Part shown: one piece after another, positions 6,622 through 37,205 of the stretch
How the letters are laid out: the number at the start of each line of letters is the position of its first letter
How positions within the stretch are numbered: position 1 is the stretch's first letter
DNA from: Candidatus Eiseniibacteriota bacterium
Lineage (GTDB): Bacteria; Eisenbacteria; RBG-16-71-46
Reading direction: 5' to 3'
Assembly: GCA_023249845.1 (NCBI GenBank)
Contig: JAHFBW010000003.1
Coordinates: forward strand, 1 to 45,949
DNA: 45,949 nucleotides
Notes under the pieces: model-generated
What the model was told of the DNA's origin: nothing
The model's input: the letters and a program-made list of their open reading frames with translations, nothing else
The model's database searches: none
Translations under genes and position numbers: made by a program

Positions 6622-7343
6622 AGCACGCCGTGCTGAGCGACGTGCACGCGAACGTCGAGGCGCTGGACGCCGTGCTCGCGAGCGCCACCGAGCGCGGCGC
6701 CGAAGACTTGGTCTGCCTGGGTGACTTCGTGGGCTACGGTGCGTCGCCGAACGAATGCGTCGAGCGGCTTCGCCCGCGCATCGAGACCGCCGTGCTCGGG
6801 AACCACGACCAGGCCGTGTTCGATCCCTCGTGGCTCGAGAACTTCAACGAAGAGGCCGCCGCCGCCGCGCGCTGGACCGCGACCACGTTGAGCCACGAGC
6901 ACCTGGACTACCTGCGCGCGCTGCCGTTCTCGGTGCCGTGGCGCGGCGCGCGCCTCGTGCACGCCTCGCCGGCCGAGCCCGGAGCGTGGAACTACGTGTT
7001 CACGCCGCACGAGGCCGTTGTGGAGATGGACGCGTGCGAGGAGCCGGTGTGTCTCGTTGGGCATTCACACTACCCGGGTACATTCGAGGTGAACGGCCGG
7101 CGTGCCGCGTACACGCGCGACGCGCGCATCGCGGGCCGGCGCGACCGGCGCTACTTGGTGGTCGTGCCGAGCGTCGGCCAGCCGCGCGACGGCGATCCGC
7201 GCGCCGGCTACCTGCTGTGGGACGACGAGGCATGGACGTTCGAGCACGTGCGGTTGGAGTACGACCTGGAGCGTGCCATCGAACGCATCGAACGGGCGGG
7301 CTTGCCGAGCGCGCTGGGCGAGCGCCTGCGCTGGGGGGAATAG
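6618..7343 (+). CDS. Metallophosphoesterase family protein
   Basis: Calcineurin-like motifs in order: SDVH, GDFVGYG, GNHD, GHSH. ATG 6618 overlaps the nusB stop (ATGA). The ORF-track N-terminal extension from 6180 overlaps nusB and was rejected. Confidence 0.8.
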   Translation: MKHAVLSDVHANVEALDAVLASATERGAEDLVCLGDFVGYGASPNECVERLRPRIETAVLGNHDQAVFDPSWLENFNEEAAAAARWTATTLSHEHLDYLRALPFSVPWRGARLVHASPAEPGAWNYVFTPHEAVVEMDACEEPVCLVGHSHYPGTFEVNGRRAAYTRDARIAGRRDRRYLVVVPSVGQPRDGDPRAGYLLWDDEAWTFEHVRLEYDLERAIERIERAGLPSALGERLRWGE

Positions 7344-8119
7344 TGACGCGCGCCTCGACACTCGACCACTGGGAGTCCTACTGGAAGGGACACCGCCAGG
7401 ACATTCACGACACCTATTCCACCGGAGGACGTCTGGTGCGCGAGGTACTGGCGGACGGTCCCGTGGAGGGCCGGCTCGTGCTCGAGATCGGCGCCGGCTC
7501 GGGGCGCGATCTGCTCGAGCTGGCGCGCCAGGGCGCGCGCGGAATCGTGCTCGACTATTCGCCGGCAGCGCTGGTACTCGTGAGGCAGCAGGCGGACTCC
7601 CTCGGCATCCCGGTGATGCTCGTCCAGGCGGACGCCACACGCATGCCGTTTCGCGACTGCGCCATCGACGTGTCGTTCCACCAGGGCCTGCTCGAGCATT
7701 TCCGCGACCCGCGGCGGCTGCTCGCCGAGAACACGCGCATCACGCGGCCGGGGGGCCGCGTGCTCGTGGACGTGCCGCAGGCCTGGCATCTCTACACGGT
7801 CATGAAGCAGGTGCTCATCCTGATCAATCGCTGGTTCGCGGGCTGGGAGACCCAGTTCAACGTGCCGCAGCTCGAGCGTCTGATTCGCGAGTCCGGGCTC
7901 GAGGTGGTGCGCACGTACGGCGACTGGATGGTGCCCGGGTTGTGGTATCGCGTGACGCGCGAGGTGCTGAAGCGCGGATTCGGCGTAAGGTTGCCGCTCC
8001 ACCCGCGCGGCCCCGCAGCGTGGTCTCGCGCCTGGGAGCGCTGGCGCTCGTGGCTTCGCGGCAGGCGCTGGGCGCTCCACAGCTGTCACGTCATCGGGAC
8101 GGTCGGGCGCAGACCGTGA
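7343..8119 (+). CDS. Class I SAM-dependent methyltransferase
   Basis: SAM motif I VLEIGAGSGRDLLELA, followed by ..VLDYSP.., ..DVSFHQGLLEHF.. and ..RPGGRVLVDVP. GTG 7343 shares 1 nt with the upstream TAG. Confidence 0.8.
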   Translation: MTRASTLDHWESYWKGHRQDIHDTYSTGGRLVREVLADGPVEGRLVLEIGAGSGRDLLELARQGARGIVLDYSPAALVLVRQQADSLGIPVMLVQADATRMPFRDCAIDVSFHQGLLEHFRDPRRLLAENTRITRPGGRVLVDVPQAWHLYTVMKQVLILINRWFAGWETQFNVPQLERLIRESGLEVVRTYGDWMVPGLWYRVTREVLKRGFGVRLPLHPRGPAAWSRAWERWRSWLRGRRWALHSCHVIGTVGRRP

Positions 8120-8126: not shown

Positions 8127-9245
8127 ATGACGCGTCGCCTGCTGGCGATCAACTTCCGCGATCCGGCGCACCCCGAGGCGGGGGGCGCCGAACTGCATCT
8201 GGAGCACGTGCTCGCGGAGGCCGTGCGACGCGGGTGGGACGTGACCTGGCTTGCCGCGGGATACGCGGGCGGAGCGCCTGCGGGGGAGCACCGCGGGATG
8301 CGCATCGTTCGTCGCGGCACGTGGTGGAACTTCAATCTGATCGTGCCGGGTGTGCTACGCCGCGAGTTCTCCGGAGCCATGCGGCCCGACCTCGTGGTGG
8401 AGGACGTCAACAAGGTGCCGTGCCTCGCGCCGTGGTTCACGCAGGCTCCAGTGGTGGTCGTGGTGCCGCACCTGTTCGGCACCACGGCATTCCGCGAAGC
8501 GAACGCGCTCATCGCGTGCTACGTCCTGACACTGGAGGCGCTGATCCCGGCTGCGTACCGGAAGTGCCGCTTCGTCGTCATCTCGGAGAGCACACGTGAC
8601 GACGTGGTCGCGCGCGGCATCCCCGCGCCGCAGGTCACCGTCGTGCACTGCGGTCTCGACCACGATCGCTATCACGCCGATCCCGCGACACCGAAGGCCG
8701 CGCGGCCCACGCTCACGTTCGTGGGGCGTCTGCGACGCTACAAGGGACTCGACTGGGTCTTGCGAGCACTCCCGGCGGTACTCGCCCGTGTGCCAGACGC
8801 GCGGCTCGAGATCATCGGGGACGGACCGCACATGGAGGCGCTTCGCCACGAGGTCGGGCGCATGAAGCTCGAGGCGAGCGTCACGTTCCTGGGGTTCCTT
8901 CCCGGTGAGCGCAAGGTGCAGCAACTGCGCTCGTCATGGGCCGTGCTGCAGCCTTCGCCCAAGGAGGGATGGGGGCTCACCGTCGTAGAGGCCTCGGCGT
9001 GTGGCACCGCGGTGATCGCGAGCGACGCGGCGGGCCTGCGCGATTCCGTCCGGCGCGACGAGACGGGACTGCTCGTGCCGTACGGCGACGTGGGGCGGCT
9101 CGCAGATGCCATGGTGCGCGTGCTCACGGACGCGCCGCTCCGCGAACGCCTCGAGCGCGGGGGACTCGAGTGGGCGGCACGGTTCCAGTGGCCGGAGTGT
9201 GGCCGGCGTTCGATGGATGCCCTCCTCGGGGAGGCATCCGCGTGA
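8127..9245 (+). CDS. Glycosyltransferase family 4 (GT-B)
   Basis: The C-terminal GT4 signature EGWGLTVVEASACGTAVIASDAAGLRDSVRRDETGLLVPYGD (E-x7-E type) is present, with a Rossmann-like N-domain. Confidence 0.85.
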   Translation: MTRRLLAINFRDPAHPEAGGAELHLEHVLAEAVRRGWDVTWLAAGYAGGAPAGEHRGMRIVRRGTWWNFNLIVPGVLRREFSGAMRPDLVVEDVNKVPCLAPWFTQAPVVVVVPHLFGTTAFREANALIACYVLTLEALIPAAYRKCRFVVISESTRDDVVARGIPAPQVTVVHCGLDHDRYHADPATPKAARPTLTFVGRLRRYKGLDWVLRALPAVLARVPDARLEIIGDGPHMEALRHEVGRMKLEASVTFLGFLPGERKVQQLRSSWAVLQPSPKEGWGLTVVEASACGTAVIASDAAGLRDSVRRDETGLLVPYGDVGRLADAMVRVLTDAPLRERLERGGLEWAARFQWPECGRRSMDALLGEASA

Positions 9246-10237
9246 GCCCGCGTCGTTCGCCGCGCGCGGTGTCACTCCTCGCCGTCAAGGTGCTGGTGAG
9301 CGTGCTGCTGTTCGCGTGGGCCTTCCGCCGCGTGCGCTGGGACGCGATCGGGCCTGTGCTCGAGCACGCGGCGCCGTTCTGGATCGCGGCCGCCGCGATG
9401 CTGCTGCTCGCCAGTCACCTGCTCGCCTCGTACCAGTGGAGCCGGCTGCTGCGCGCCGCGGGCGTGAAGCTGCCGTTGTGGAAAGTCATCGCCTACTACC
9501 ACGTCGGATTGTTCTTCAACAATTTCCTGCCCGCGAACGTGGGCGGCGATCTCGCGCGCACCCTCGACATCGCGCGCTCGGGCTCGTCGCGGCCGACGGC
9601 GCTCGCCACCGTGCTGCTCGATCGCCTGATTGGCACCGTGGCGCTCGGGGTGGTGGCGGTCGTGAGCACGATCCCCGCGATCGATCATTTCCATCTCGCC
9701 GCCGCCTACGCCGGCGTGGTGACGTTCCTGGCAGCCGCAGTGCTCATGCTGCGCGCCGTACTCGAGCCGCGCGTTCTCGCCGCGCTCGACCGCGTGCTCG
9801 CCGCGATCGGCCTGTCGCGGCTGGCGCCGGCCCTGGACGAGCTGTCGGCGAGGCTCGCCGCGTTCCGCGGCAAGCGCCGGCTGTTGCTCGAACTGCTGTG
9901 CGTGGCGCTCGTCGTGCAGATCATGCGCATCGGCGTACACGTGCTGTTCGCGCGCGCGCTCGGGCTCCACGTGCCCGCGGCCTACTTCTTCCTTTTCGTG
10001 CCGCTGCTGGCGGTGATAGTCTCCCTGCCCATCTCATTGAACGGCATCGGGGTACGCGAAGGCGCCGGCATCCTCCTGTTCGGCCTCGTCGGGCTCGACA
10101 AGAGCAGTGCGTTCGCGCTCCAGTTCGGCACTTACCTCATCGCCGTGGGCGTCAGCCTGCTGGGCGGGCTGGTGTTCCTGGTGCGCATCCCGAGCCGTCG
10201 GGCGAAGGCCCGGAATCCACGGAGGTCCACCGAATGA
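9242..10237 (+). CDS. UPF0104 / lysyl-phosphatidylglycerol-synthase-TM-like membrane protein (flippase-like)
   Basis: Polytopic membrane protein with the family-typical block YHVGLFFNNFLPANVGGDLARTLDIAR. GTG 9242 overlaps the upstream stop (GTGA). Confidence 0.75.
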   Translation: MSPRRSPRAVSLLAVKVLVSVLLFAWAFRRVRWDAIGPVLEHAAPFWIAAAAMLLLASHLLASYQWSRLLRAAGVKLPLWKVIAYYHVGLFFNNFLPANVGGDLARTLDIARSGSSRPTALATVLLDRLIGTVALGVVAVVSTIPAIDHFHLAAAYAGVVTFLAAAVLMLRAVLEPRVLAALDRVLAAIGLSRLAPALDELSARLAAFRGKRRLLLELLCVALVVQIMRIGVHVLFARALGLHVPAAYFFLFVPLLAVIVSLPISLNGIGVREGAGILLFGLVGLDKSSAFALQFGTYLIAVGVSLLGGLVFLVRIPSRRAKARNPRRSTE

Positions 10238-12930
10238 TCCCGACCCAGCGCATGGCCGCGCTGATCTCGGTGCTCGTCTTCATCTTCGCTGCGGCTGTCT
10301 ACCTCCTCACGCTCACGCCCACCGTCCCGTTCTGGGACTCCGGCGAATACATCGCGGTGGCCACCATCCTCGGCGTACCCCACCCCCCGGGCACACCGTT
10401 CTACGTGCTGCTCGGTCGCATCGCGACGCTCGTGCCGTTGGGAAACATCGCGCAGCGCGTGAATGCCCTGTCAGCGATCCCGGCGGCGCTCGCGGTGATG
10501 TTCACCTACCTGTCGGCGCTCCGGCTCATCCGCCTATCACAGGGCTCCGATCGGAAGCCCTGGCACGAGGGCGTCGCGATCGCGGCCGCCGCGACGGGTG
10601 CGCTGCTGCTCGCGTTCTCGGACGCATTCTGGGAGAACTCGGTCGAGGCCGAGGTCTACCAGCTCATGAGCCTGGCGCAGATCCTGGTGTTCTGGCTCGG
10701 ATTGCGATGGTGGGAGGCGCACGACCGGAAGCCGACGGTAGGCCCGCTGCTGCTCGCAACCTACATCATGTGGCTGTGTGTCGGGCTTCACCTGGGCGTC
10801 GGCATCATGGGCGCGCCGCTGATCGTGCTCGTGTTCCTCGTGGACCGGCCGGTGGCGTTCCTGTTCCTGATGCCGTTCCTGACGTTGCTGCGCGTCCCGG
10901 CCGGGCTCGAGCACATGGCCGGGGCGGTCATCCTGCTGTCCGCGATCACGTCGGCGACCTTGGCCTGGCGCAAGAAGCTGAACGGGTGGGTGGCGCTCGC
11001 GGGCGCCGCGTTCTCGTTGCCCGGGCTCGGTGTCGCCAGCTCGGACGCGAACTTCACTCCAGGGCTGGCGTTGCTCACGCTGGCGGCGGTCGTGGGGCCC
11101 ATGGTGTGGCTCGCGCGCCGGCACCGGGAGGGCCGCGTGCTGCTGCTCGCGTTGTTCCTCATGGTCGCGGGCTACTCGACGCACCTCTACCTGCCGATCC
11201 GCGCCGCGCAGCACCCCGCCGTGAACGAGGGCGCGCCTGCGACGTGGGACAAGATGCGCGACCTGCTCGAACGCAAGCAGTACGGCGAGATGAACCCGTT
11301 CACGCGCCGCGCGCCGCTCGGCACCCAGCTCGACAAGGAGTTCTTCCGCTACTTCCGGCGACAGTGGACGCTCGTCGGCGCCGACGACTACCCGCGCCTC
11401 CAGCTGTCGCGCGCCGCGCACTTCGACGCGCAGCCGCCGACGTCCTGGTTCTGGAACCTCGTCCACAACCTGTGGCTCATGTTCCCACCCGGCGCGCTGT
11501 TGCCCTTGGCACTCGGCCTGCTCGGCGGGTGGTGGCAGCTGCAGCGGGAGAAGCGCTCGTTCATGTTCACGTTCTCGTTCCTGGGACTGTCCACGGTCGG
11601 CATGATCGTGTTCCTGAATTTCTCGGCGAGCGAGGTGCGCGATCGCGACTACTTCTTCCAGAGCGGATTCCACGCGTTCGCGCTGTGGATCGGGCTGGGC
11701 ACGGCCAGGCTCGTCCAGTGGGTACGCGATTCGTTCGAAGAAGGCGCCGGGCAGGGCCTCGCGACCGTCACGGCGAGCGGCCTGCTCGCGCTGCAGCCGC
11801 TCATGCTCATGACGAACCTGTGGCACATGCACGACCGAAGCGGCAACTACATCGCGCGCGACTACGCCTACAACATGCTGGCGACACTCAAGCCCAACTC
11901 ATTCATGTTCACGAACGGCGACAACGACACGTTCCCGCTCTGGTACATCCAGGAGGTCGAGGGGTTCCGCAAGGACGTGCGCATCGTGAACCTGAGTCTG
12001 CTCAACACGGACTGGTACATCCGGCAACTCCGCGACGACCAGCCGAAGGTGCCGATCACGCTCGACGACCGCACCATCGACATGCTCGGAGCCGGCGCGT
12101 TCCAGGACGACCAGGGGCGCATCATCTACACGAACGAGTTCATGGTGCACCACATGCTGGAGCAGGCGAAGCGCGACACCGGCTGGGTCAAGCAGCCGTA
12201 CTTTGCCGTCACCGTTCCGAACGACTTCGGTTTCAGCCCGTACTTCCGCCAGGAGGGCATCGTGCAGGAGGTCATGCGCGATAGCCTGCAGGGCGGCTTC
12301 GACGAACCCACCACGCACAAGGCGCTGTACGAGACGTTCCGCTATCGCGGCTTGATCACCGCCAACGGCTCGTGGGACCCGAACGTGTTCAAGGACGAGA
12401 ACGCGCAGAACCTGTCCAAGAACTACGCGTTCGCGCACATGCAGCTGGCGCTCCACTACCGGCGGCAGCGCGACTTCCCGCGCGCCATCGCCGAGATGGA
12501 GCGCGTCGAGCGTATGTTCCCGGAGTGGGTCGAGATCCAGCTCCCGTTGGGGGGCATCTACCTCTCGGCCGGCGATACGCTCAAGGCATGGCAGTTCTAC
12601 GACCGGCTGGCGGAGCGCGTGCCGATGAGCGCGGAGGCGCAGTATTACCGCGGCGCCTCGCTCGCGTATCGCGGCCGCAGTGAAGAGGCGCTCGGCGCGT
12701 TCCGCCGCTCGCGCCAGCTCGACCCGAACTACGCGTACCCGTACTTCGACGAGTTCGCCACGCTGTGGGAGATGGGCCAGCGCGAGGCCGCCGTTCAGGT
12801 GATGCAGCGCTGGGTTCAGCTGCATCCCAACGACCAGGAAGGCAAGGCCCGGCTGCAGGAGGCTCGACTCCGCCTGAGCGGCGGGAACGGCTCCTCGCCA
12901 CTGGGCACGCCACCGCCGAGACCGAACTGA
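10234..12930 (+). CDS. DUF2723 / TMEM260-like GT-C membrane glycosyltransferase with C-terminal TPR domain
   Basis: N-terminus LTLTPTVPFWDSGEYIAVATILGVPHPPGTPFY is the DUF2723 hallmark (acidic D..E in the first outer loop). Many TM helices follow. The C-terminal roughly 200 aa contain TPR-like repeats (..AIAEMERVERMFPEW.., ..EALGAFRRSRQLDPNYAYPY..). ATG 10234 has GGAGG 9 nt upstream and an ATGA overlap. Confidence 0.8.
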   Translation: MIPTQRMAALISVLVFIFAAAVYLLTLTPTVPFWDSGEYIAVATILGVPHPPGTPFYVLLGRIATLVPLGNIAQRVNALSAIPAALAVMFTYLSALRLIRLSQGSDRKPWHEGVAIAAAATGALLLAFSDAFWENSVEAEVYQLMSLAQILVFWLGLRWWEAHDRKPTVGPLLLATYIMWLCVGLHLGVGIMGAPLIVLVFLVDRPVAFLFLMPFLTLLRVPAGLEHMAGAVILLSAITSATLAWRKKLNGWVALAGAAFSLPGLGVASSDANFTPGLALLTLAAVVGPMVWLARRHREGRVLLLALFLMVAGYSTHLYLPIRAAQHPAVNEGAPATWDKMRDLLERKQYGEMNPFTRRAPLGTQLDKEFFRYFRRQWTLVGADDYPRLQLSRAAHFDAQPPTSWFWNLVHNLWLMFPPGALLPLALGLLGGWWQLQREKRSFMFTFSFLGLSTVGMIVFLNFSASEVRDRDYFFQSGFHAFALWIGLGTARLVQWVRDSFEEGAGQGLATVTASGLLALQPLMLMTNLWHMHDRSGNYIARDYAYNMLATLKPNSFMFTNGDNDTFPLWYIQEVEGFRKDVRIVNLSLLNTDWYIRQLRDDQPKVPITLDDRTIDMLGAGAFQDDQGRIIYTNEFMVHHMLEQAKRDTGWVKQPYFAVTVPNDFGFSPYFRQEGIVQEVMRDSLQGGFDEPTTHKALYETFRYRGLITANGSWDPNVFKDENAQNLSKNYAFAHMQLALHYRRQRDFPRAIAEMERVERMFPEWVEIQLPLGGIYLSAGDTLKAWQFYDRLAERVPMSAEAQYYRGASLAYRGRSEEALGAFRRSRQLDPNYAYPYFDEFATLWEMGQREAAVQVMQRWVQLHPNDQEGKARLQEARLRLSGGNGSSPLGTPPPRPN

Positions 12931-29158: not shown

Positions 29159-29874
29159 TGGAGAAGCTCGTCATCATCCCCACCTACAACGAGCGCGAGA
29201 ACATCGATCCTCTGATCGAAAGCCTGCTCGCGCTCCCGTACGGGCTCGAGGTGCTGGTGGTGGACGACGGCTCGCCAGACGGCACGGCGGCGAGCGTGAA
29301 GGCGTGGACAGCGCGCGACCCGCGTGTCCACCTGCTCGAGCGGCCGGGCAAGCTGGGGCTCGGCTCGGCCTACCGCGACGGCTTCCGTTACGCGCTCGCG
29401 AACGGTGTCGAATACGTGTTCGAGATGGACGCGGATTTCTCGCATGACCCGGTCGCGATCGGTGACTTCCTCGAGGCCGCGAAGGACGCGGACATCGTGC
29501 TGGGCTCGCGCTACCTGCATGGCGTTACCGTTGTGAACTGGCCACTCTCGCGCCTCATCCTGTCGTTCTCGGCGAATCTCTACTCGCGCATCGTCACCGG
29601 TATGCCGGTGGCCGACGCCACGGGCGGGTTCAAGTGCTTCCGTCGCCGGGCGCTCGAAGGTATCCGCCTGGACCGGGTGAAGACCGAGGGCTACGGCTTC
29701 CAGATCGAGATGACGTTCCGCTGTTGGAAGCGCGGCTTCCGCATCAAGGAGATCCCGATCGTGTTCGTGGACCGTCGCGCGGGGATCTCCAAGATGAACC
29801 GGCGGATCATCCTCGAGGCCGCGGGCCTGGTGTGGAAGTTGCGGTTGCTCGACCTCCTGGGGCGTCTCGAATGA
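29158..29874 (+). CDS. Polyprenol-monophosphomannose synthase (Ppm1/DPM1-like GT2)
   Basis: LVIIPTYNERENI, VVDDGSPDGT, LGLGSAYRDGF, EMDADFSHDP and DATGGFKCFRR are nearly diagnostic DPM1/Ppm1 blocks. It has no TM segment. The ATG shares 1 nt with the YfhO stop. Confidence 0.85.
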   Translation: MEKLVIIPTYNERENIDPLIESLLALPYGLEVLVVDDGSPDGTAASVKAWTARDPRVHLLERPGKLGLGSAYRDGFRYALANGVEYVFEMDADFSHDPVAIGDFLEAAKDADIVLGSRYLHGVTVVNWPLSRLILSFSANLYSRIVTGMPVADATGGFKCFRRRALEGIRLDRVKTEGYGFQIEMTFRCWKRGFRIKEIPIVFVDRRAGISKMNRRIILEAAGLVWKLRLLDLLGRLE

Positions 29875-32168
29875 TCCGCATGAGATGGGTGAAAGCCGCG
29901 CTCGTCGCGGCAGCGCTGCTCGCCGCGCCCGTGGCGCGCGCGGAAGGACTGTGGTCCACGTACCTGCACGCCAGCTCCTGCAACGACATCCTGGCGCTGC
30001 GGGACACCGTGTGGATGGCGACCGGCGACGCCGGGCTCCTGCGCTACCACCGTTCGACCGACTCGTGGAGCACGATCACGCGTGAGCCGGACGGGCTCGC
30101 GGGTAACGACGTTCAGGCGATCACGTTCGACCGCTCGGGGAACCTGTTCGCCGCCGTACCGGGCAAGGGCGTGAGCCGGCTGGACACCGATGGTCATTGG
30201 TCACTGATCAACGCGTTCGACGGCCTGCCCTCGGATACCGTGCTCGTGCTCCACGCCGATGGCGATACGGTGTGGATCGGCACCACGCGCGGCCTGGCGC
30301 TGTGGGACGGCAAGACCGTTGCGGGCTCGGTGCCGGACCTCGGCACCCCGTCGCCGTTCTCGAACAACAACATCAACGGCCTCGCCGTGACAGGCGACAC
30401 GCTGGTCGTGAGCACGCCGGAGGGGATCTACGTCGCGCGAATTTCGCAGCGCCTCGCGACGTGGAATCTCATCAACGGAACGTTGCCGCTACTGAACCAG
30501 GATATCCGGGGCATCGCGAGCGACGGGCGAGTGCTCCTCGCGCTCGTGAAAGGTAACCCCATCAGCAATCCCACAGGGGTCATCTTCACCAGCTTCCGCT
30601 GGTCGCCATCCACGAATTCGTGGCCGACCGAAACCCCGGGGTCCGGTTTGGGGCAATCGGTTCGAAGGCTGCGGGACGACCACGGCATCATCGTCGCGAC
30701 GACGCTGGCTGGAACCCACCTGCGCACCGCGAGCGGAGTGTGGATCCAGAGCCCGAATTCGCCGGCAACGGACAACGGCGACGTCGCGGCGCTCGAGCCC
30801 GCGGCGGATCCGGACGGAGTGTTGTTCACGTCCACGGCAGGCAAGCTTGCGCAGGAACCGTCCTGGACCGCGCTCGCGCCGCCCGGTCCCGTGGGCAACA
30901 CGTCGCGCAACGTCGCGTGGGTGAACGGCACGGTGTACGTGTGTTACGCGGGCGAGGGCATCGGGCGGTTGCGCGACGGCGTCTGGCGCAACTACCCGGC
31001 GAGTGGGACCAACTGCGTGGGGGCCGAGTGCGACACGACGTTCACGAATTCGGTCTTCCCCGCCGGCATGCTTGTGGATCCGCTCGGGTCCCGCTGGATC
31101 GCGATGTGGGGCGGTCCGCTCACGCGGTTCTCGGACGAGACCTCGCCGCCCGTGTTCCAGAACATCTTCTACGCGAGCAGCAATGCGGACAGCGCCCACC
31201 TCCATTCGACTATCCACGCCGCTGCCGCGGACTCCACGAATGGGACGCAGGCCGGTCGCTGGTTCGGCCTCGACTCCGACCGCATCGGCAATGACATCGG
31301 CAATCCGCTGGGACTCGACCTCTACGACCAGGACGGCCGTTTCATTCGCAACTACGACACAACCTATCCCGGTCTCAGGAACGGCCTCATCCGTGCGCTC
31401 GTGTGCGACCGCTCCAACAAGATGTGGGTGGGCTACAAGGGCAGCTCGAGCGCCGGGCTGTCCACATTCCAGGTGCCAGAGAACCTGCAGGTCGGAATCG
31501 AGCTCACGGACGTGCTGTCCACGAACCGGCTCGACGTGTTCGGCCTCGCCACCGTCGGGGATTCCGTGTGGGTGCTGGCCACGGACGGCCTCTACCGCTA
31601 CCGCCAGAGCACGGCCGCGTTCGTCTCTAAGCTGGAGATCGCCGGCCCGCCCGCGCTCGCGAGCATGCATCCCCTCGCCGTGGCGCCCAACGGCACCGTG
31701 TTCGTGGGTACGACAGGCGGAATGCGCGTGCATCGCCGTGGCCGCCTGCCGATGGACTACACGCCCGACAACTCGCCGATCGCCGACGTCGAAGTGCGCG
31801 GCTTGTACTGCGAGCCCTCGGGTGCGGTGTGGATCGCGACGGCGAGCGGGGTCAATCGGTTCGATCCGGAGTACATCCCACCACCCGAGCCGAAGTTGCC
31901 GTCGCTCACCGTCAAGCTCTACCCGAATCCGGCATGGCTCACCGGCGCCGGATTCGAGCTCCGTCTCGCGGGCCAGGCCACCTCCTACGTCGGCGAGGTC
32001 TTCGACTTGAACGGCCGGGTCGTGCACCGCTTCAGCATCGGAGGCAACGGGAGCGTATTCTGGGGCGGACGCAACCTGGACCAGCAATGGGTCGGCCCCG
32101 GAGTCTATTTCGTTCGCGTCCGGGGCGGCGGGGCCGAGGCGACGTCGCGCGTCGTCGTGCTGCGCTAG
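29871..32168 (+). CDS. Secreted beta-propeller (two-component-regulator-propeller-like repeats) protein with T9SS/FlgD-Ig-type C-terminal sorting domain
   Basis: Signal peptide MIRMRWVKAALVAAALLAAPVARA/EG. There are many repeats of the type ..V(W/L)xxTxxGLxxY/W.. (VWMATGDAGLLRY, VWIGTTRGLALWDG, VWVLATDGLYRY, VWIATASGVNRFD). The last roughly 85 aa are KLYPNPAW..VFDLNGRVVHRF..WGGRNLDQQWVGPGVYFVRVRGGG..SRVVVLR. ATGA overlap with the Ppm1-like gene. Confidence 0.75.
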   Translation: MIRMRWVKAALVAAALLAAPVARAEGLWSTYLHASSCNDILALRDTVWMATGDAGLLRYHRSTDSWSTITREPDGLAGNDVQAITFDRSGNLFAAVPGKGVSRLDTDGHWSLINAFDGLPSDTVLVLHADGDTVWIGTTRGLALWDGKTVAGSVPDLGTPSPFSNNNINGLAVTGDTLVVSTPEGIYVARISQRLATWNLINGTLPLLNQDIRGIASDGRVLLALVKGNPISNPTGVIFTSFRWSPSTNSWPTETPGSGLGQSVRRLRDDHGIIVATTLAGTHLRTASGVWIQSPNSPATDNGDVAALEPAADPDGVLFTSTAGKLAQEPSWTALAPPGPVGNTSRNVAWVNGTVYVCYAGEGIGRLRDGVWRNYPASGTNCVGAECDTTFTNSVFPAGMLVDPLGSRWIAMWGGPLTRFSDETSPPVFQNIFYASSNADSAHLHSTIHAAAADSTNGTQAGRWFGLDSDRIGNDIGNPLGLDLYDQDGRFIRNYDTTYPGLRNGLIRALVCDRSNKMWVGYKGSSSAGLSTFQVPENLQVGIELTDVLSTNRLDVFGLATVGDSVWVLATDGLYRYRQSTAAFVSKLEIAGPPALASMHPLAVAPNGTVFVGTTGGMRVHRRGRLPMDYTPDNSPIADVEVRGLYCEPSGAVWIATASGVNRFDPEYIPPPEPKLPSLTVKLYPNPAWLTGAGFELRLAGQATSYVGEVFDLNGRVVHRFSIGGNGSVFWGGRNLDQQWVGPGVYFVRVRGGGAEATSRVVVLR

Positions 32169-32243: not shown

Positions 32244-33284
32244 GTGCTGCCGTTGACCGAATCCACCACCCGGGTCTTGACCACCGTGCCCGAGGGCTGG
32301 GGCGCGTTGCTCGACGCGGATCCCTCCGCGTCCCCGTCACACCGGCCCGAGCTCTGGGAAGCGATGGCCGCCGCGGTGCCAGCCTTCGAATGGCGCGTGC
32401 TCGAGCTGCGGGACGGAGGCCTCGCGGGCGGGGCTCCGCTCGTGATCTCGCGGCGCGGGCCGTTCCGCTGGCTCCACGCGCTGCCGTGGCTCCTGCCCGC
32501 GCCCCCGCTCGCTCGCGCGGGCCAGCACGCGCGTGCGGACGACGCGCTGTGCGCAGCGTTCGCGGACCTCGCGGCCGTGGAGCGCGCGGTGGGAGGGGAG
32601 TGGTCGTTCTACCGTCCGGAAGGTCCCGACCCAGCCGCGAGCGCGCTCTCGTTGGTTCCGGGGGAGACGCGTCGGTTCGCGGCCGCCATCTTGCCGCTCG
32701 CCGCGGGGATCGATTCCGTTCGATCGGGTGTACACCGGAAGCAGCGCCAGGCGCTCGACCAAGCGATCGCACAACCGTTCATGTTCGCGGAGGAAGCTTC
32801 TGCGCTGGAGGAGGCGCAGGCACTGCACCTCGCCCAGTCGCGGCACTGGCCCGGTCATCGGCCGGTGCCGCTCGAACTCTGCCATCGGCTGCTGCGCGCG
32901 GGGCCCGCGGAGGCGCGCGTCGGGAGGCTGTTCACGCTGCGTTCGCGCCACGATCTCGTCTCGGCGACGTTCGCGCTCGACGGCCCGCACGAGACGTTCG
33001 TGTGGTGGAGCGGCACCCGCCCCGAGGGCCGGCGTGCGAACGCGTTCCTCCGCCTGCTGTGGGGAGTGGCGGAATGGGCCGCCGCACGCGGCCGGCGGCG
33101 ATTGAACCTGGGCGCGAGCGGCGGGCTCTCGCAGGTGGGGGCGTTCAAGTCGGCGCTGGGAGCGACGCTCGTGGACTATCCCGTGCGCTGGCTCGACGCG
33201 CGACATGCTTCGCTTGCGGGCCGCGGACTCGCGCTGGTACAGGCGTTCCGACGGCGCGGCCGAGCGCGCGGCGAGGCCACGTGA
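32244..33284 (+). CDS. FemAB/CelD-like GNAT-fold acyl(aminoacyl)transferase
   Basis: The C-terminal block ..FVWWSGTRPEGRRANAFLRLLWGVAEWAAARGRRRLNLGASGGLSQVGAFKSALGATLVDYP resembles FemAB / Acetyltransf_6 family proteins. GTG start after a 75-nt gap. The call is by eye. Confidence 0.6.
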   Translation: MLPLTESTTRVLTTVPEGWGALLDADPSASPSHRPELWEAMAAAVPAFEWRVLELRDGGLAGGAPLVISRRGPFRWLHALPWLLPAPPLARAGQHARADDALCAAFADLAAVERAVGGEWSFYRPEGPDPAASALSLVPGETRRFAAAILPLAAGIDSVRSGVHRKQRQALDQAIAQPFMFAEEASALEEAQALHLAQSRHWPGHRPVPLELCHRLLRAGPAEARVGRLFTLRSRHDLVSATFALDGPHETFVWWSGTRPEGRRANAFLRLLWGVAEWAAARGRRRLNLGASGGLSQVGAFKSALGATLVDYPVRWLDARHASLAGRGLALVQAFRRRGRARGEAT

Positions 33285-34357
33285 GAATCGCGACGCTCGC
33301 GAACGCCTCCGTCGTGCATACGCGGCGCTGGGTGGAGCACTTCCGATCACGCGGACACGAGGTCCGCCTGTTCTCGCTGGAGGAGCCGCCCGCTGGATTC
33401 GCGACGACGGCGCTGCCGTGGGTTCCGCTGCCCGGTGTGATCCGCTACCCGCTCGCGGTCCCCGCGCTCAAGCGCGAACTTCGTGCGTTCGCGCCCGACC
33501 TCGTGGATGCGCACTACGTGCCGAACTACGGCGTCATGGCGGCGCTCGCAGGGCGGCGCCCCTATTCGATCACGGCGTGGGGCAGCGACCTGCTGCTCGC
33601 GGCCGGCCGCGACCCGTGGCAACGCATGCGCGCGCGGTTCGCGCTCGAAGGCGCCGCTCTCGTGCTGTGTGACGCCGAGAACCTCGCCGCGGCCGCCCGC
33701 CGCGCCGGCGCGCCGGCCGAGCGCGTGCGTGCGATCCCCTGGGGTGTGGACCGCGAGCTCTACCGTCCCGGCGGCACACGCGAGCGCGGGCTCATCCTGT
33801 CTGCGCGCATGCACGAGAGTGTCTACGACTTGCCCACCGTGATCGAGGGTGCTGCGCGGGTGCTCGAGACTCTGCCGCACGCGCATGTCGTGTTCGCGGG
33901 AGATGGAATGCTGCGGCCCGAGCTCGAGCGCCGCGCGGCGGCGCGGCTCCCGGCCGGGCGCTACCGATTCGTGGGCCGGGTCGGCGCGGCCGAGCTGGCG
34001 TCCTGGCTCTCGCGAGCCGAAGTCTACGTGTCCGCGTCGCGCTCCGATTCCACGTCGCAATCCCTGCTCGAGGCCATGGCCGCTGGGGCGGTCCCGGTGG
34101 TGAGCGATATCGAGGGGAATCGCGAGTGGGTGCGCCCGGGCGAGAGCGCGCGGCTCTTCCCGGTGGGCGACGCCCCGGTACTGGCGCGCGAGCTGCGTGT
34201 GGTACTCGAGGATCCGGCCTGGGCAGCGTCCGCGCGAGACGCCGCGGCGCGGGTGATCGCCGCGCGCGGGGACTGGCGCGTGAACCTCGCGCGCATCGAG
34301 CGCTGTTTCGAGGCGGTGGTGGCCAGGCGGCCGCTGCCCGAGGAGCCGCCTCTGTGA
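33281..34357 (+). CDS. Glycosyltransferase family 4 (GT-B)
   Basis: IATLANASVVHTRRWVEHFRSRGHEV (GT4 N-domain). C-terminus ..VYVSASRSDSTSQSLLEAMAAGAVPVVSDIEGNREWVRPGESARLF. GTGA overlap. Confidence 0.8.
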   Translation: MRIATLANASVVHTRRWVEHFRSRGHEVRLFSLEEPPAGFATTALPWVPLPGVIRYPLAVPALKRELRAFAPDLVDAHYVPNYGVMAALAGRRPYSITAWGSDLLLAAGRDPWQRMRARFALEGAALVLCDAENLAAAARRAGAPAERVRAIPWGVDRELYRPGGTRERGLILSARMHESVYDLPTVIEGAARVLETLPHAHVVFAGDGMLRPELERRAAARLPAGRYRFVGRVGAAELASWLSRAEVYVSASRSDSTSQSLLEAMAAGAVPVVSDIEGNREWVRPGESARLFPVGDAPVLARELRVVLEDPAWAASARDAAARVIAARGDWRVNLARIERCFEAVVARRPLPEEPPL

Positions 34358-35631
34358 GGCGCGTGCTCGTGCTCACGCCGTTCTTCCCGCCGCTCGCGGG
34401 GGGAGGGGTTCACCGCGTGCTCTCGTTCGTGCGCCACCTGCCGGCGCGCGGCTGGGCATGTACCGTCGTGTGCGCGGGCGAGCACGACTACTGGGTGCGC
34501 GACGAATCACTGCTCAAGCAGGTGCCACCCGCGACCGAGGTGCTGCGCGTCGCGGGCGGCAGCGCGCTCGCGGCGTGGTTGCGCGTGCGCGGGAAGGCGG
34601 ACTCGGGCCGGCGCTCGGGAGGCGCGTTCGCACCGCTTCGTTCACTCGCGGATTGGTGGCTGCTGCCGGATTCCTACGCCGGCTGGTCGCGACGCGCGCG
34701 CAGTGTGGCAGCGGCGCGCGCATCGCGCGGCGACGTTCACGCCGTGCTCTCGAGCTCGCCGCCCGACAGCGCCCACCTCGCCGCGCTCGACGTGACGCGT
34801 ACCGCCCGGCTGCCGTGGGTGGCGGACTTTCGTGATCCCTGGGTGGGGCTCCACTTCCGCAAGCCCCCGACGCCGTGGCACGCGGCGCGACATGCCGCGA
34901 TGGAGGCGAGCGTCACGGGTAGCGCAGACCTGGTGCTCACTGCGTCCCGGACGCACGAACGTGAGCTTGCATCACGCGCGGTCGGCAAGCCACGACGGCT
35001 GTTGCACCTGCCGAACGGCTTCGAACCCTCCACGAGCACGACCCAGGTCGTGGACCGATCGCGGTTCCGGCTGGCGTTCACGGGCACGCTCTCGCTCATG
35101 GACGACATGGGTACGCTGCTCGATGCGCTCGAGCGCCTGCAAGGCATCGAACCGCGAGCGCGCGACGCGCTGCGCGTGGAGCTGGTGGGGCCGTACGATT
35201 CCGATTGGGAGGCGCGCACGAACGCGCGCGGCCTCGGAAGTCTCGTGCGCTTCAGCGGACCGCGGTCGCACGCGGAGACGCGCGCGCTCCAGCGTTCGGC
35301 GGACGCGCTGCTGCTGTGGAAACCCCGCGGGGACGGCTATCGCACCATGGTGCCCGGCAAACTCTACGAGTATCTGGACAGCGAGCGGCCGATCCTGGCG
35401 CTGCTTCCCGAGCATGATGAGGCCGCGGAGCTGGTGACACAAGCGGGCGGGAGCGTGCTTCCGCCGGGAGACGCCGAAGCGCTGGCGGTCGAGCTCGCCG
35501 CGCGTCTCGCGCGCTGGCGCGAGGCGGGACGACTTCCGGATGCCCGGCCGGCGTGGCTCGGTGAGTACGCGCGCGAGCGTCTCGCCGGCGAGCTCGCACG
35601 CGCGCTCGACTCGCTCGTGGAACGGGCATGA
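34354..35631 (+). CDS. GT-B glycosyltransferase (GT4-like)
   Basis: VLVLTPFFPPLAGGGVHRVLSFVRHL (N-domain). ..FTGTLS.., ..MVPGKLYEYLDSERPILAL.. (C-domain). GTGA overlap. Confidence 0.7.
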   Translation: MRRVLVLTPFFPPLAGGGVHRVLSFVRHLPARGWACTVVCAGEHDYWVRDESLLKQVPPATEVLRVAGGSALAAWLRVRGKADSGRRSGGAFAPLRSLADWWLLPDSYAGWSRRARSVAAARASRGDVHAVLSSSPPDSAHLAALDVTRTARLPWVADFRDPWVGLHFRKPPTPWHAARHAAMEASVTGSADLVLTASRTHERELASRAVGKPRRLLHLPNGFEPSTSTTQVVDRSRFRLAFTGTLSLMDDMGTLLDALERLQGIEPRARDALRVELVGPYDSDWEARTNARGLGSLVRFSGPRSHAETRALQRSADALLLWKPRGDGYRTMVPGKLYEYLDSERPILALLPEHDEAAELVTQAGGSVLPPGDAEALAVELAARLARWREAGRLPDARPAWLGEYARERLAGELARALDSLVERA

Positions 35632-37205
35632 CGCCGTCGGACCCCGGCGCACGCATCGAACGCGTCGCGCTCGTCGTCGCGGTGCTGCTTTGCGCGGCGC
35701 TCGCGTGGCCGCTGCGTCATTACCTCACGGACGACACGTTCATTCATCTACAGTACGCGCGAAACGTCGCCGAGGGTCGCGGTTTCGTTTTCAACCCGGG
35801 TGAGCGCGTCTACGGCAATACGAGCCCGCTCTGGGTTCTGCTCCTGGCCGACGGCATCGCGCTCGGAGGAGACGGGCTCGTTGTTGCGCGCGTATTGGGA
35901 GCGCTCGCTACGCTCGCGTCACTGCTGCTGTGGGTTGCGCTCATGCGGCAGACTCTCTCGAGCCCGTGGCTCCGCGCCGCGTCCACGTTCGCGTGGGCGG
36001 GGCATGCCTGGATGTCGCGCTGGTCGCTCTCGGGCATGGAGACGCCTGTCGCGGTGGCGCTCGTGCTCGCGGGCTTCGTGGCATTCACCTCCGGCGAGCG
36101 CTGGGGGAGCCGACCGCGCGCGGCGAGCCTGTTGTGGTCGCTCGCCGCGCTCGTTCGGCCCGAGTGCGTGCTGCTCGTGCTGCTGTGGGCCTTGGTTCGC
36201 GTCGTGGAGGAAGGCCCGGTTCGGGGTGCCCGGCGCGCGCTCGCCGAGCTGTGGCCGGCGCTGTTCGTCCAGGGCGGCTGGCTCGTGTTCGCAAGTGTGT
36301 ACTTCGGCGGGGCGTGGCCCAACACGCTCGCGGCCAAGGCGGCGGGAGGGGTGGGGCTTGACTACCACGTCGAGCAGTTCCAACGGCAGGCGGGGATCGT
36401 CGCCGCCACGGATGGCGTTCTGGTCGTCGTGTTGCTCATCCTGCTGGCGCTCCGATTCGCGCGCGCGGGTCGGCCGGCATTGCGGCCGCTGCTCCGCGGG
36501 CTGCCGTGGGCCTGGCTCGCTGCCGTGCCCCTCCTCTATATGCTGCGCGGCGTCCCCGTGTTGTCGCGCTACCTGGTGCCACTTCTGCCGATCGTGGACT
36601 GGCTCGCCTGGCGCACGCTCGACCGTGCGCTCGAGATGCGCCCGGCGAGTACACCCGCCACGGCCACCCCGGCCCGACTCGCGCGCTCGGACGCGCGCGT
36701 CGCCGTGATCGGGCTGGTGCTCGCCGGCGTCGTGCTCGCGCAGAACGTGATCGTGTGGCGGCGGGTCGTGCGGCCCCAGGTGGATTCGTTCAGCGCCGGC
36801 CTGGAAGCGAGTCTGATTCCGTGGGGTCGCTGGTTCCACGACCACGCGCCCGCGGACGCGGTGATCGCCGCCCCCGACATCGGCGCACTCGGCTATTTCT
36901 CGCGACGACGCGTCGTGGACTTGGCCGGGCTCGTCACACCGGAGATGGTGCCGGTCTTGCGGCGCTGGCCGCAGGAGGAAGCGGTGTCGCGGTTCGAATT
37001 CGCGCGATTCTCACGTCCCGGCTTCCTCGTGGACCGCGCCGCGACTGCGTGGGACCTGCAGCGAAGAAGCCCGTGGGCCGTCGCGCTCGTTCCGCTCGGT
37101 TCGGCCTCGGTGCCGAATCTGGGGATCGCCCGCCCCGATGCGGCGGTGTACACCTTCTATCGCATCGACTGGGCCGCGTACGACTCGCTCGCCGCCGCTC
37201 GCTGA
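35628..37205 (+). CDS. Polytopic membrane glycosyltransferase, GT-C-like (DD-motif, arabinofuranosyl/mannosyltransferase-like)
   Basis: First-loop motif YLTDDTFIHLQYARNVAEGRGFVFNPGERVYGNTSPLW, about 10 TM helices, then a soluble C-terminal domain. ATGA overlap. It is the last gene before the terminator. The family assignment is tentative. Confidence 0.6.
   Translation: MTPSDPGARIERVALVVAVLLCAALAWPLRHYLTDDTFIHLQYARNVAEGRGFVFNPGERVYGNTSPLWVLLLADGIALGGDGLVVARVLGALATLASLLLWVALMRQTLSSPWLRAASTFAWAGHAWMSRWSLSGMETPVAVALVLAGFVAFTSGERWGSRPRAASLLWSLAALVRPECVLLVLLWALVRVVEEGPVRGARRALAELWPALFVQGGWLVFASVYFGGAWPNTLAAKAAGGVGLDYHVEQFQRQAGIVAATDGVLVVVLLILLALRFARAGRPALRPLLRGLPWAWLAAVPLLYMLRGVPVLSRYLVPLLPIVDWLAWRTLDRALEMRPASTPATATPARLARSDARVAVIGLVLAGVVLAQNVIVWRRVVRPQVDSFSAGLEASLIPWGRWFHDHAPADAVIAAPDIGALGYFSRRRVVDLAGLVTPEMVPVLRRWPQEEAVSRFEFARFSRPGFLVDRAATAWDLQRRSPWAVALVPLGSASVPNLGIARPDAAVYTFYRIDWAAYDSLAAAR

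Follow-up and report, generated by a model that had tools for sequence, protein, structure and literature searches.

Gene Content of the Glycan Block

We analyzed a stretch of 45,949 nucleotides from a Candidatus Eiseniibacteriota genome (GenBank assembly GCA_023249845.1, contig JAHFBW010000003.1), which as a whole is called the window here. A block of about 30 kb at 7343-37205 holds 23 co-directional genes, labelled g06-g28, for glycosyltransferases (GT), enzymes of sugar supply and tailoring, flippases, and a homologue of PorZ from type IX secretion (Table 1). The G+C content of the window is about 70%, so that plain lists of open reading frames (ORFs) are crowded with false frames; gene frames and starts were picked by third-codon-position GC across the window. 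From 2696 to 45898 all genes lie on the plus strand. A first-pass annotation, made from the sequence alone, had counted 24 co-directional genes in the block. The frame analysis gives 23, and independent calls on a near-identical contig (L087) agree with it over the shared part, which begins in the C-terminal portion of g16. Neighbouring genes overlap by 1 or 4 nt at 14 of the 22 internal junctions, and the widest internal gap is about 80 bp. Promoter and terminator scans gave no signal above chance within the cluster, which together with the overlapping junctions suggests co-expression of the block.

Pfam and NCBIfam scans were run on all predicted window proteins. With hhalign they bear out the 13 glycosyltransferases proposed at first pass: six GT-B/GT4-like (g07, g14, g18, g21, g26, g27), three GT2 (g11, g16, g23) and four GT-C (g09, g15, g22, g28). 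The weakest call, g18, was related to the g26 GT4 family by hhalign (91.5% probability over 287 columns); this gene comes and goes, being missing from many loci in a tblastn matrix. The divergent g27 aligns to the same family with 97.4% probability and has homologues with stronger GT4 matches. Pfam also recovers the other enzymes that the first-pass annotation had named, that is, two methyltransferases, an amidotransferase, a FemAB/GNAT enzyme, an epimerase, the UPF0104 protein (9242) and the Wzx flippase (22032). Three genes were absent from it: the nucleotidyltransferase g12 (14853), the GHMP kinase g13 (15539) and the PorZ-like g24 (29871).

Table 1. Features of the window: the glycan block (g06-g28), then its surroundings. 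Matches described as sub-cut-off lie under the curated cut-off of the model.
Feature	Position	Strand	Evidence
g06, S-adenosylmethionine (SAM)-dependent methyltransferase, probable sugar O-methyltransferase	7343..8119	+	Pfam Methyltransf_11 E 2e-19; top NCBIfam match MftM, far under cut-off
g07, GT4 (GT-B) glycosyltransferase	8127..9245	+	Pfam Glycos_transf_1 E 1e-35; NCBIfam PEP-CTERM stp3/stp2, EpsE-like, all sub-cut-off
g08, polytopic flippase-like protein (LPG_synthase_TM/UPF0104)	9242..10237	+	Pfam PF03706 E 3e-38; TIGR00374 above cut-off
g09, GT-C of TMEM260/DUF2723 family with C-terminal TPR	10234..12930	+	Pfam TMEM260-like E 4e-41
g10, nicotinamide adenine dinucleotide (NAD)-dependent sugar-nucleotide epimerase/dehydratase	12944..13894	+	Pfam Epimerase E 4e-55; NCBIfam RmlB- and GalE-like, sub-cut-off
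g11, predicted polyprenol-phosphate-sugar synthase (GT2, ArnC/GtrB/PgfS type)	13891..14856	+	Pfam Glycos_transf_2 E 2e-33; NCBIfam ArnC 194 bits, PgfS 148 bits, both sub-cut-off
g12, sugar-1-phosphate nucleotidyltransferase (ManC/HddC-like)	14853..15542	+	Pfam NTP_transferase E 7e-21; NCBIfam man1P_GTase 119 bits, HddC 101 bits, sub-cut-off
g13, GHMP-family anomeric sugar kinase (HddA-like)	15539..16570	+	Pfam GHMP_kinases_N and _C; NCBIfam HddA 284 bits, cut-off 600
g14, GT4 glycosyltransferase	16581..17744	+	Pfam Glyco_trans_1_4 E 8e-28
g15, GT-C (ALG9/ALG12/ArnT-like fold)	17741..19282	+	AlphaFold2 (AF2) and Foldseek; no Pfam match
g16, GT2 (rhamnosyltransferase/GlfT1/MftF-like)	19279..20190	+	Pfam Glycos_transf_2, Glyco_tranf_2_3; NCBIfam matches sub-cut-off
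g17, SAM-dependent methyltransferase	20187..21017	+	Pfam Methyltransf_23 E 8e-16
g18, divergent GT-B-like transferase	21022..22035	+	Pfam Glycos_transf_1 E 2.5e-4, sub-cut-off
g19, Wzx-type (MOP family) lipid-linked oligosaccharide flippase	22032..23474	+	Pfam Polysacc_synt_3 E 3e-15, Polysacc_synt E 4e-11; HfsF-like by NCBIfam
g20, glutamine-dependent AsnB-type amidotransferase (WbpS/eps_aminotran_1-like), candidate uronamide former	23496..25571	+	Asn_synthase E 6e-74 and GATase_7
g21, GT4-like transferase (TuaH-like)	25576..26700	+	Pfam Glyco_trans_1_4 35 bits, above cut-off; NCBIfam TuaH 83 bits, sub-cut-off
g22, YfhO-family GT-C	26717..29158	+	Pfam YfhO, borderline for the window protein
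g23, predicted soluble DPM1/AglJ/PpgS-type polyprenol-phosphate-sugar synthase (GT2)	29158..29874	+	Pfam Glycos_transf_2 E 3e-33; NCBIfam AglJ, PpgS, Dol-P-hexose transferase, sub-cut-off
g24, PorZ-like secreted protein: two beta-propellers and type IX type-A C-terminal sorting domain	29871..32168	+	AF2/Foldseek, NCBIfam
g25, FemAB/GNAT-fold acyl- or aminoacyl-transferase (VimA/pepcterm_femAB-like)	32244..33284	+	Pfam Acetyltransf_6 E 1e-11
g26, GT4 glycosyltransferase	33281..34357	+	Pfam Glyco_trans_1_4 E 2e-21, Glyco_transf_4 E 2e-17
g27, divergent GT4-like transferase	34354..35631	+	Pfam Glyco_transf_4 E 8e-5, sub-cut-off
g28, AftB-like GT-C with DD motif	35628..37205	+	NCBIfam AftB E 4e-10, N-terminal part only
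Flavin mononucleotide (FMN) riboswitch, upstream of ribD	2522-2652	+	Rfam RF00050, 112 bits
Left border (context, outside the system): FMN riboswitch and ribD-ribE-ribBA-ribH	2522..6187	+	Rfam, Pfam
Calcineurin-like metallophosphoesterase, possible accessory	6180..7343	+	Pfam Metallophos_2 E 5e-14; 1-nt overlap with g06 start
Right border (context, outside the system): dcw (division and cell wall) operon mraZ, STAS gene, rsmH, ftsL-like, penicillin-binding protein (PBP; FtsI with PASTA), murE, murF, mraY	37337..45898	+	Pfam

Two of the GT2 enzymes, g11 (13891) and g23 (29158), are predicted polyprenol-phosphate-sugar synthases, as had been proposed at first pass, and their family matches all lie under the equivalog cut-offs. 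Each stands by a GT-C gene: g11 is near g09, and g23 always adjoins g22. The g11 protein ends in two transmembrane helices (247-265 and 279-297), and g23 is the most conserved gene of the block, with 70-90% identity over the main Eisenbacteria group. The polytopic g08 has at least 6-8 hydrophobic segments (a scan flagged 11 stretches, several of them overlapping) and adjoins g09-g11 even in deep relatives. It is a candidate flippase, the substrate of which would be a polyprenol-phosphate-sugar; no match to a GtrA- or small multidrug resistance (SMR)-type (ArnE/F) flippase was found in any window protein.

Four GT-C Membrane Proteins

The four large membrane proteins g09, g15, g22 and g28 show about 8-13 hydrophobic segments each in a hydropathy scan in which some flagged stretches overlap. 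Judged by Pfam, by PDB profile matches and, for g15, by modelling, all four are GT-C enzymes, in agreement with the first-pass annotation, which had also pointed to an acidic motif in the first outer loop of each. These motifs are present, and in three proteins the acidic residues after the first transmembrane segment, in the first extracytoplasmic loop, proved conserved: D28/E29 of g15 are invariant in 36 sequences, D35/D36 of g28 in 35 and D47 of g22 in 19. A catalytic role is predicted for them.

Protein-directed GT-C enzymes such as TMTC1-4 carry TPR repeats, and so does g09. Its WDSGEY motif follows the first transmembrane segment within the TMEM260-like domain, and the protein matches the solved TMEM260 structure 9rql (E 1e-22). 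Human TMEM260 is a protein-specific O-mannosyltransferase (PMC10214176). By analogy g09 is a candidate protein O-glycosyltransferase and may glycosylate proteins directly; our literature search found no paper on bacterial DUF2723 proteins. One deep relative (L077) has two tandem TMEM260-like GT-C genes with TPR, at 534-3053 and 3304-5886, against one in the window.

Searches of the PDB by sequence found no match for g15, g22 or g25, and for g24 they found sensor-kinase propellers only. Since they were uninformative for g15 and g24, AF2 models and Foldseek were needed for these two proteins. The g15 model (predicted local distance difference test, pLDDT, 86; predicted template modeling score, pTM, 0.90) is all-helical and membrane-like. 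Nine of its ten top PDB matches are GT-C enzymes (ALG9, ALG12, ArnT, EmbB, PglB, Pmt4) with probability 1.0 and template modeling scores (TM) of 0.41-0.51, and at rank 8 stands the C-mannosyltransferase DPY19 (probability 0.97, TM 0.35). Some g15 homologues match Pfam PMT; the gene is confined to the main Eisenbacteria group.

The window g22 scores 28.1 bits against Pfam YfhO, just under the threshold of 28.5, and all 19 members of its family, down to 28% identity, match this model (best E 6e-21). It has about 12-13 hydrophobic segments. The PDB searches gave no solved relative, and as there is no solved YfhO structure the GT-C fold of g22 is deduced from family membership. For g28, an alignment of the family profile with the AftB structure 9dlf (E 5e-8) spans about 240 residues, DD motif included. 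The possibility that g15 or g28 is an unrecognised Wzy or WaaL was considered and rejected, given the best folds of g15 (ALG9, ALG12, ArnT, EmbB) and the alignment of g28 with AftB through the DD motif.

A PorZ Homologue inside the Block

The g24 protein has 765 amino acids with Reg_prop propeller repeats recognised by Pfam. The top PDB fold for its AF2 model (pLDDT 90) is PorZ (5m11; E 6e-27, TM 0.59/0.60), the structure of which was reported in PMC5121618, while Foldseek gives a TM of only about 0.34 against Bacteroides sensor-kinase double propellers. All 42 members of the g24 family match NCBIfam T9SS_PorZ (best E 2.5e-31), none of them reaching the equivalog cut-off of 260 bits; the score of the window protein is 52 bits. 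Forty of the 42 also match the sorting-domain model TIGR04183, where the window protein, at 35 bits, clears the cut-off of 23. Proteins at the g24 position in the deep Eisenbacteria group and in Krumholzibacteriia reach 67-92 bits with the PorZ model. As modelled, g24 is a structural homologue of PorZ, with a putative ability to bind anionic lipopolysaccharide (A-LPS), and it is itself a type IX secretion substrate. PorZ hands A-LPS to PorU, the sortase by which type IX cargo is fixed to the cell surface (PMC8545088). The PorZ-like gene is the least conserved of the block, at 33-44% identity where its neighbours have 50-80%.

Next to g24 lies g25. All 17 members of the g25 family match TIGR03019 (best E 5e-16), the window protein itself at E 0.024, and VimA matches the same model (Veith et al., PMC7468200). 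Nearby g20 adjoins the Wzx gene g19 and scores 391 bits with TIGR03108, the cut-off of which is 817. Asparagine synthases beside vimA-like genes in PEP-CTERM loci match TIGR03108, and also WbpS (PGN_1234) by PSI-BLAST; the linking sugar owes its amino acid to VimA and its uronamide to WbpS (PMC7468200). The linker of Porphyromonas gingivalis is a single pentasaccharide built on undecaprenyl diphosphate, with no polymer (PMC13086638, from the same group as PMC7468200), and a single non-polymerised linker fits the presence of Wzx without Wzy in the window. ORFs carrying type-A sorting domains are also found elsewhere on contigs of Eisenbacteria, among them a homologue of the gene at the left end of the window. 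Taken together, the PorZ-, VimA- and WbpS-like genes and the Wzx context point to a type IX anchor glycan rather than to a general protein-glycosylation machine. In the literature searched, no paper dealt with the glycans of Eisenbacteria or with their type IX secretion, and for other phyla of the Fibrobacterota-Chlorobiota-Bacteroidota (FCB) group it offered nothing useful on this secretion system.

At the left end of the window, a gene for a beta-propeller (YVTN-repeat) protein lies on the minus strand at 1-2384 and runs off the end. A homologue with 75% identity (L091, 1396-4794, minus strand) has a C-terminus that resembles a type IX sorting domain in a custom hidden Markov model. The left-end protein is probably type IX cargo, to judge by this likeness.

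Conservation and Build-up of the Block

Homologues of g15, g28 and g24 are almost all metagenomic, and their named sources are Candidatus Eisenbacteria. A scan of species-representative genomes gave 78 loci, nearly all from Eisenbacteria, the closest at 96% identity. The order g06-g23 is identical in L001, L004 and L005, and the order g21-g28, followed by mraZ through murD, in L006-L008. The tblastn matrix, with 86 loci, retains g14-g28 and mraZ in nearly all of them. In a metagenome scan, ribD-ribE-ribBA-ribH, the phosphoesterase and g06 onward (to g13 where the contig allows) were seen in all 37 loci that reach far enough upstream. With 50-90% identity throughout the phylum, the block is a vertically inherited housekeeping locus and not a variable O-antigen or capsule island.

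The neighbourhood comparison that had been suggested at first pass thus finds the module set conserved across Eisenbacteria. As proof of a single unit, conserved gene order had to be downgraded, because the rib and dcw operons, which are unrelated, show the same degree of synteny and co-linearity alone proves no functional unit.

It is instructive to follow the block into more distant relatives, where g08-g09-g10-g11 and g22-g23 stay together at 28-40% identity. A deep Eisenbacteria group (L065, L066, L070, L071, L077) has a shorter block, without g12, g13, g15, g17-g20 and g28, and with g22 about 39% identical. In L066 the order is g08-g09-g10-g11-g14-g16, a GT4 gene on the opposite strand, g21-g22-g23, a fusion gene, the PorZ-like gene, a FemAB-like gene, g26-g27 and mraZ. 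The PorZ-like gene of this group thus keeps its position beside the FemAB-like and two GT4 genes; the PorZ-like and FemAB-like genes are too diverged for the tblastn matrix. Krumholzibacteriota loci retain g11-g14-g16-g22-g23 as a minimal set, and a Krumholzibacteriia locus (L072) additionally holds the fusion gene and the PorZ-like gene. The block was assembled stepwise.

In a variant Eisenbacteria locus (L003, 12014-18768) the glycan block stops right after the amidotransferase. The genes that follow encode an FG-GAP protein and, on the reverse strand, a propeller protein, both with C-termini that resemble sorting domains.

Genes Missing from the Window

Pfam and NCBIfam gave no Bac_transf, Wzy_C, Wzz, Poly_export or ATP-binding cassette (ABC)-transporter match in the 46-kb window, and no WecA-type (Glycos_transf_4) match besides mraY of the dcw operon at 44807. 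The first-pass statement that an initiating transferase, Wzy, Wzz, Wza and an ABC exporter are lacking therefore holds for the window. Nor do priming, Wzy or exporter genes lie directly outside the block: both of its borders fall inside the window, with the rib operon and the metallophosphoesterase on the left and the dcw operon, from mraZ on, to the right. The window also has no WbpA/B/D/E, no aminotransferase or dehydrogenase of that type, no carbohydrate esterase family 4 (CE4) domain as in VimE, no donor genes for decaprenyl-phospho-arabinose (UbiA-type, DprE1/DprE2) and no Lcp ligase. WaaL, PorU and PorV are absent from the cluster, as are oligosaccharyltransferases of the PglB, PglL and PglS types.

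The fusion gene of the deep relatives bears on the missing primer. In L077 (13132-15207) it joins GT2, CoA_binding_3 and Bac_transf domains, the last with 33.9 bits against a cut-off of 27. It is also present in L071 and L072 and lies between the DPM-like GT2 gene and the PorZ-like gene in deep relatives; neither the window nor any main-group locus fetched contains a homologue. The Bac_transf match is limited to the C-terminal half and reads GDFVKP at what we take to be the site of the Asp-Glu motif, which makes phosphoglycosyl-transferase activity doubtful. With its half-domain and possibly degenerate motif, the fusion was accepted as a hint only and not as proof of a normal primer. Genes for priming enzymes and ligases often lie apart from glycan clusters, as do wecA and waaL of Escherichia coli. 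This habit and the fusion inside the same block of deep relatives make the missing primer weak evidence for an unusual pathway. Genes for the primer, the ligase and the type IX core presumably lie elsewhere in the genome, and those for the WbpA/B/D/E and VimE-like enzymes may do so too. The first-pass view that the locus fits poorly with a standard O-antigen or capsule cluster is borne out by the lack of Wzy, polysaccharide co-polymerase (PCP), outer membrane polysaccharide export (OPX) and ABC genes and by the conservation across the phylum.

Borders and Expression Signals

The metallophosphoesterase lies between ribH and g06 in all 37 metagenome loci that reach at least 2.5 kb upstream of g07, and could belong to the glycan pathway. 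Only its C-terminal part of about 240 residues is well conserved. The rib operon, this gene and the glycan genes follow each other on one strand nearly without gaps, and read-through from the riboswitch-regulated start is conceivable. The sole sigma-70-like promoter match in the 5.5-40 kb region is at 37269-37298 (plus strand). It falls in the 167 bp that separate g28 from mraZ, the place at which a dcw promoter would be expected.

The dcw gene order is the same in L006-L008 and L087. A STAS-domain gene (anti-sigma-factor antagonist-like; 37819-38280, plus strand) between mraZ and rsmH keeps its place in these four loci and is unusual for dcw clusters. The FtsI-type PBP (39723-41888, plus strand) bears PASTA domains, a feature more familiar from PBP2x and PknB-type proteins of Gram-positive bacteria. 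The G+C fraction drops to about 0.67 at 10000-14000 (g09-g11) and 29000-31000 (the PorZ-like gene), compared with 0.70-0.72 elsewhere.

Proposed Pathway

How do these components compare with systems already described? The A-LPS and PorZ-PorU pathway of P. gingivalis (PMC7468200, PMC13086638, PMC8545088) shares with the block the PorZ fold with a sorting domain, a FemAB-type enzyme, an AsnB-type enzyme beside Wzx, GT4 enzymes and the single non-polymerised oligosaccharide implied here. In contrast to it, the PorZ-like gene lies inside the glycan cluster, the matches fall under equivalog thresholds, the phylum is different, WbaP is lacking in the window in addition to WbpA/B/D/E and VimE, and four GT-C enzymes and two polyprenol-phosphate-sugar synthases have no counterpart there. 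These recall the three-component systems GtrA/B/C, CsbB/GtcA/YfhO, ArnC/ArnE-F/ArnT and PgfS/PgfE/PgfM1/PgfM2 of Streptococcus mutans (PMC5836110, PMC8035078). A GT2 synthase stands by a GT-C enzyme twice (g11/g09 and g23/g22), and the epimerase g10 lies beside the synthase g11 as PgfE goes with PgfS. Unlike those systems, the block has the UPF0104/MprF-like g08 in what would be the role of the GtrA or ArnE/F flippase, its four GT-C enzymes share two synthases amid seven cytoplasmic transferases and Wzx, and its host probably belongs to the diderms of the FCB group, not to Firmicutes or enterobacteria. The cluster can be described as a stack of three-component transmembrane glycosylation modules grafted on a type IX anchor pathway of the A-LPS kind, yet it is not a member of any system compared here, and no characterised cluster matches the block.

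From the families, folds, gene order and conservation described above we infer the order of steps, the donors, the acceptor and the link to cargo attachment as follows. The nucleotidyltransferase-kinase pair g12/g13 and the epimerase g10 would supply activated sugars in the cytoplasm, where the seven GT-A/GT-B transferases would build a lipid-linked oligosaccharide on a primer made elsewhere or possibly by a GT2. The methyltransferases g06 and g17, the amidotransferase g20 and the FemAB-type g25 would tailor it, and Wzx (g19) would flip it across the membrane. As there is no polymerase, it would remain a single, non-repeating unit. In parallel, g11 and g23 would load sugars on polyprenol phosphate. 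These would be flipped, perhaps by g08, and added at the outer face of the membrane by g09, g15, g22 and g28; as a side branch, g09 may O-glycosylate proteins directly. The PorZ-like g24 would then present the finished glycan for cargo attachment.

The two-compartment assembly taken alone is much more secure than the combined model. The GT-C identity of the four proteins, the two synthases beside GT-C genes and the lack of Wzy, PCP, OPX and ABC genes make an extracytoplasmic decoration stage very likely. Because a PorZ homologue, itself a type IX substrate, belongs to the block, an anchor or linker for the covalent tethering of type IX cargo, comparable to the A-LPS linking saccharide of P. 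gingivalis, is the most likely use of the finished glycan. Of the two functions named at first pass, extracytoplasmic decoration or protein glycosylation, the decoration stage is thus upheld, while the PorZ, VimA, WbpS and Wzx context favours a type IX anchor. To the combined model, a conserved Eisenbacteria locus for a two-compartment surface glycan used as the anchor of type IX cargo, we assign about an even chance of being right.

Several points weigh against the secretion half of this model. The matches of the PorZ, VimA and WbpS families all lie under curated equivalog cut-offs, and the window g25 reaches TIGR03019 only at the E-value given above. The cluster itself lacks WbpA/B/D/E, a VimE-like CE4 deacetylase, a priming transferase, WaaL and PorU/PorV. 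The g24 protein could simply be a glycan-binding type IX cargo protein. Adjacency is no proof where rib and dcw are equally syntenic, and the GT-C modules may act on different targets. Finally, A-LPS of P. gingivalis needs no GT-C enzyme, and the GT-C half of the block is without counterpart in that model.

Alternative Explanations

Two alternatives survive best. The first is general protein O-glycosylation, in which the oligosaccharide, the polyprenol-phosphate-monosaccharides or both are put on many envelope proteins by GT-C enzymes, with g09 as the O-glycosyltransferase and the PorZ-like protein merely as one substrate or glycan binder. The TPR repeats of g09 are those of protein-directed enzymes, and its TMEM260 membership (Pfam and 9rql matches; PMC10214176) leads in the same direction, as does the sub-cut-off resemblance of g10/g11/g22 to PgfE/PgfS/PgfM of the S. 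mutans Pgf system; Wzx without Wzy suits a single-unit glycan here too. Against this, the block has none of the oligosaccharyltransferases looked for, no characterised bacterial DUF2723 protein appeared in the literature searched, and the PorZ-, VimA- and WbpS-like genes would be left unexplained within the block. We regard this account as unlikely; it overlaps partly with the type IX anchor model and does not exclude it.

Similarly unlikely, in our estimate, is the second: that independent neighbouring modules, for example g08-g11, g22-g23, and g19-g20 with g24-g27 (the latter for a type IX anchor), serve different envelope polymers (lipopolysaccharide, another polysaccharide, proteins) and are held together by phylum synteny only. 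Synteny is as strong for the unrelated rib and dcw operons as for the glycan genes, the block was built up stepwise, with g12, g13, g15, g17-g20 and g28 missing from deep relatives, the L003 block stops after the amidotransferase, and g18 comes and goes. The 14 of 22 overlapping junctions, uninterrupted by any promoter or terminator above chance, speak against it, as does the joint passage of the core g11, g14, g16, g22, g23 and the PorZ-like gene into another candidate phylum.

A further comparison is with eukaryotic and archaeal lipid-linked oligosaccharide assembly and O-mannosylation (ALG, DPM1/ALG5, Rft1; AglJ/AglD/AglR/AglS; TMEM260/TMTC). They share with the block cytoplasmic GT4/GT2 enzymes, a MOP flippase and GT-C enzymes fed by polyprenol-phosphate-sugars; the best folds of g15 include ALG9/ALG12, g23 and g11 match the AglJ and Dol-P-hexose transferase models, and g09 is of the TMEM260 family. 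In a bacterial counterpart of this pathway, the oligosaccharide would be begun on polyprenol monophosphate by an AglJ/DPM1-like GT2, without a phosphoglycosyl transferase, extended by GT4 enzymes in the cytoplasm, flipped by the Wzx/Rft1-like protein and finished outside, with polyprenol-phosphate-sugars as donors, by ALG9/12-, YfhO- and AftB-like GT-C enzymes, and it would be joined to type IX cargo C-termini (PorZ/PorU) or to proteins by the TMEM260-like enzyme. Unlike the ALG-type systems, the window has no STT3/AglB/PglB oligosaccharyltransferase and no ALG7-type primer, and the likeness goes no further than fold or superfamily (TM about 0.5, 13-17% identity); no claim of direct descent can be made. 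We consider such a bacterial counterpart quite improbable; if true, it would be an undescribed bacterial route to a protein-anchoring glycan.

An ordinary Wzx/Wzy O-antigen or exopolysaccharide locus, with primer, polymerase, chain-length regulator and exporter elsewhere or unrecognised, is very improbable. In its favour, the block has Wzx and many GT2/GT4 genes, Wzy proteins are not easily recognised from sequence, and the block of relatives has the Bac_transf-containing fusion. There is also a weak likeness to XrtA/PEP-CTERM exopolysaccharide loci in the matches to TIGR03019 (FemAB-like), TIGR03108 (amidotransferase), GT4 stp2/stp3 and PrsT-like TPR; here neither exosortase, PEP-CTERM proteins, an EpsB-type primer nor chain-length and export genes were seen, and a type IX component is found instead. 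The TIGR03019/TIGR03108 set accompanies C-terminal protein-sorting systems (PMC7468200). The polytopic proteins that might be taken for a polymerase or ligase are GT-C enzymes (g15 by fold, g28 by its AftB match, g22 as YfhO) and not Wzy- or WaaL-like, the 46 kb hold no PCP, OPX or ABC genes and the block is bordered by housekeeping operons, and the gene content is phylum-wide, unlike that of serotype-variable loci.

A lipoglycan of the mycobacterial lipomannan/lipoarabinomannan (LM/LAM) or arabinogalactan type, begun by GT4 on a membrane lipid or polyprenol primer, elongated outside by GT-C enzymes and possibly attached to peptidoglycan given the dcw neighbour, can be set aside as extremely unlikely: among the GT-C enzymes of those pathways (AftB, Emb, AftD), g28 aligns with AftB through the catalytic DD motif, g23 is PpgS/Ppm1-like, g16 resembles GlfT1 and rhamnosyltransferases, GT4 genes weakly match GlcNAc-phosphatidylglycerol synthase and MshA/PimA-like models, g08 is related to a phospholipid flippase domain, and a lipid-anchored glycan needs no phosphoglycosyl transferase, but these matches are far under family cut-offs, g28 has no match to the AftB C-terminal domain, the decaprenyl-phospho-arabinose pathway, ABC exporter and Lcp ligase are missing, the dcw-adjacent position is shared with the unrelated rib operon, and the PorZ-like gene would be unexplained.

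Significance

In the literature found, type IX secretion and glycolipid anchoring are a topic of Bacteroidota, mostly of oral pathogens. Here, a PorZ homologue is fixed within a large glycan cluster, both in the phylum Eisenbacteria, across which the cluster is conserved, and in relatives from Krumholzibacteriota. If the link to cargo attachment is true, the block would provide a candidate gene list for a type IX anchor glycan outside Bacteroidota and would mean that the making of such anchors can involve GT-C steps in the periplasm, which are missing from the P. gingivalis model. It also places bacterial members of the TMEM260/DUF2723 family and ALG9/12-like and AftB-like GT-C enzymes in a defined genetic context for biochemistry. 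Even without the secretion link, the locus is a clear case of a conserved bacterial pathway that unites cytoplasmic and extracytoplasmic glycan assembly.

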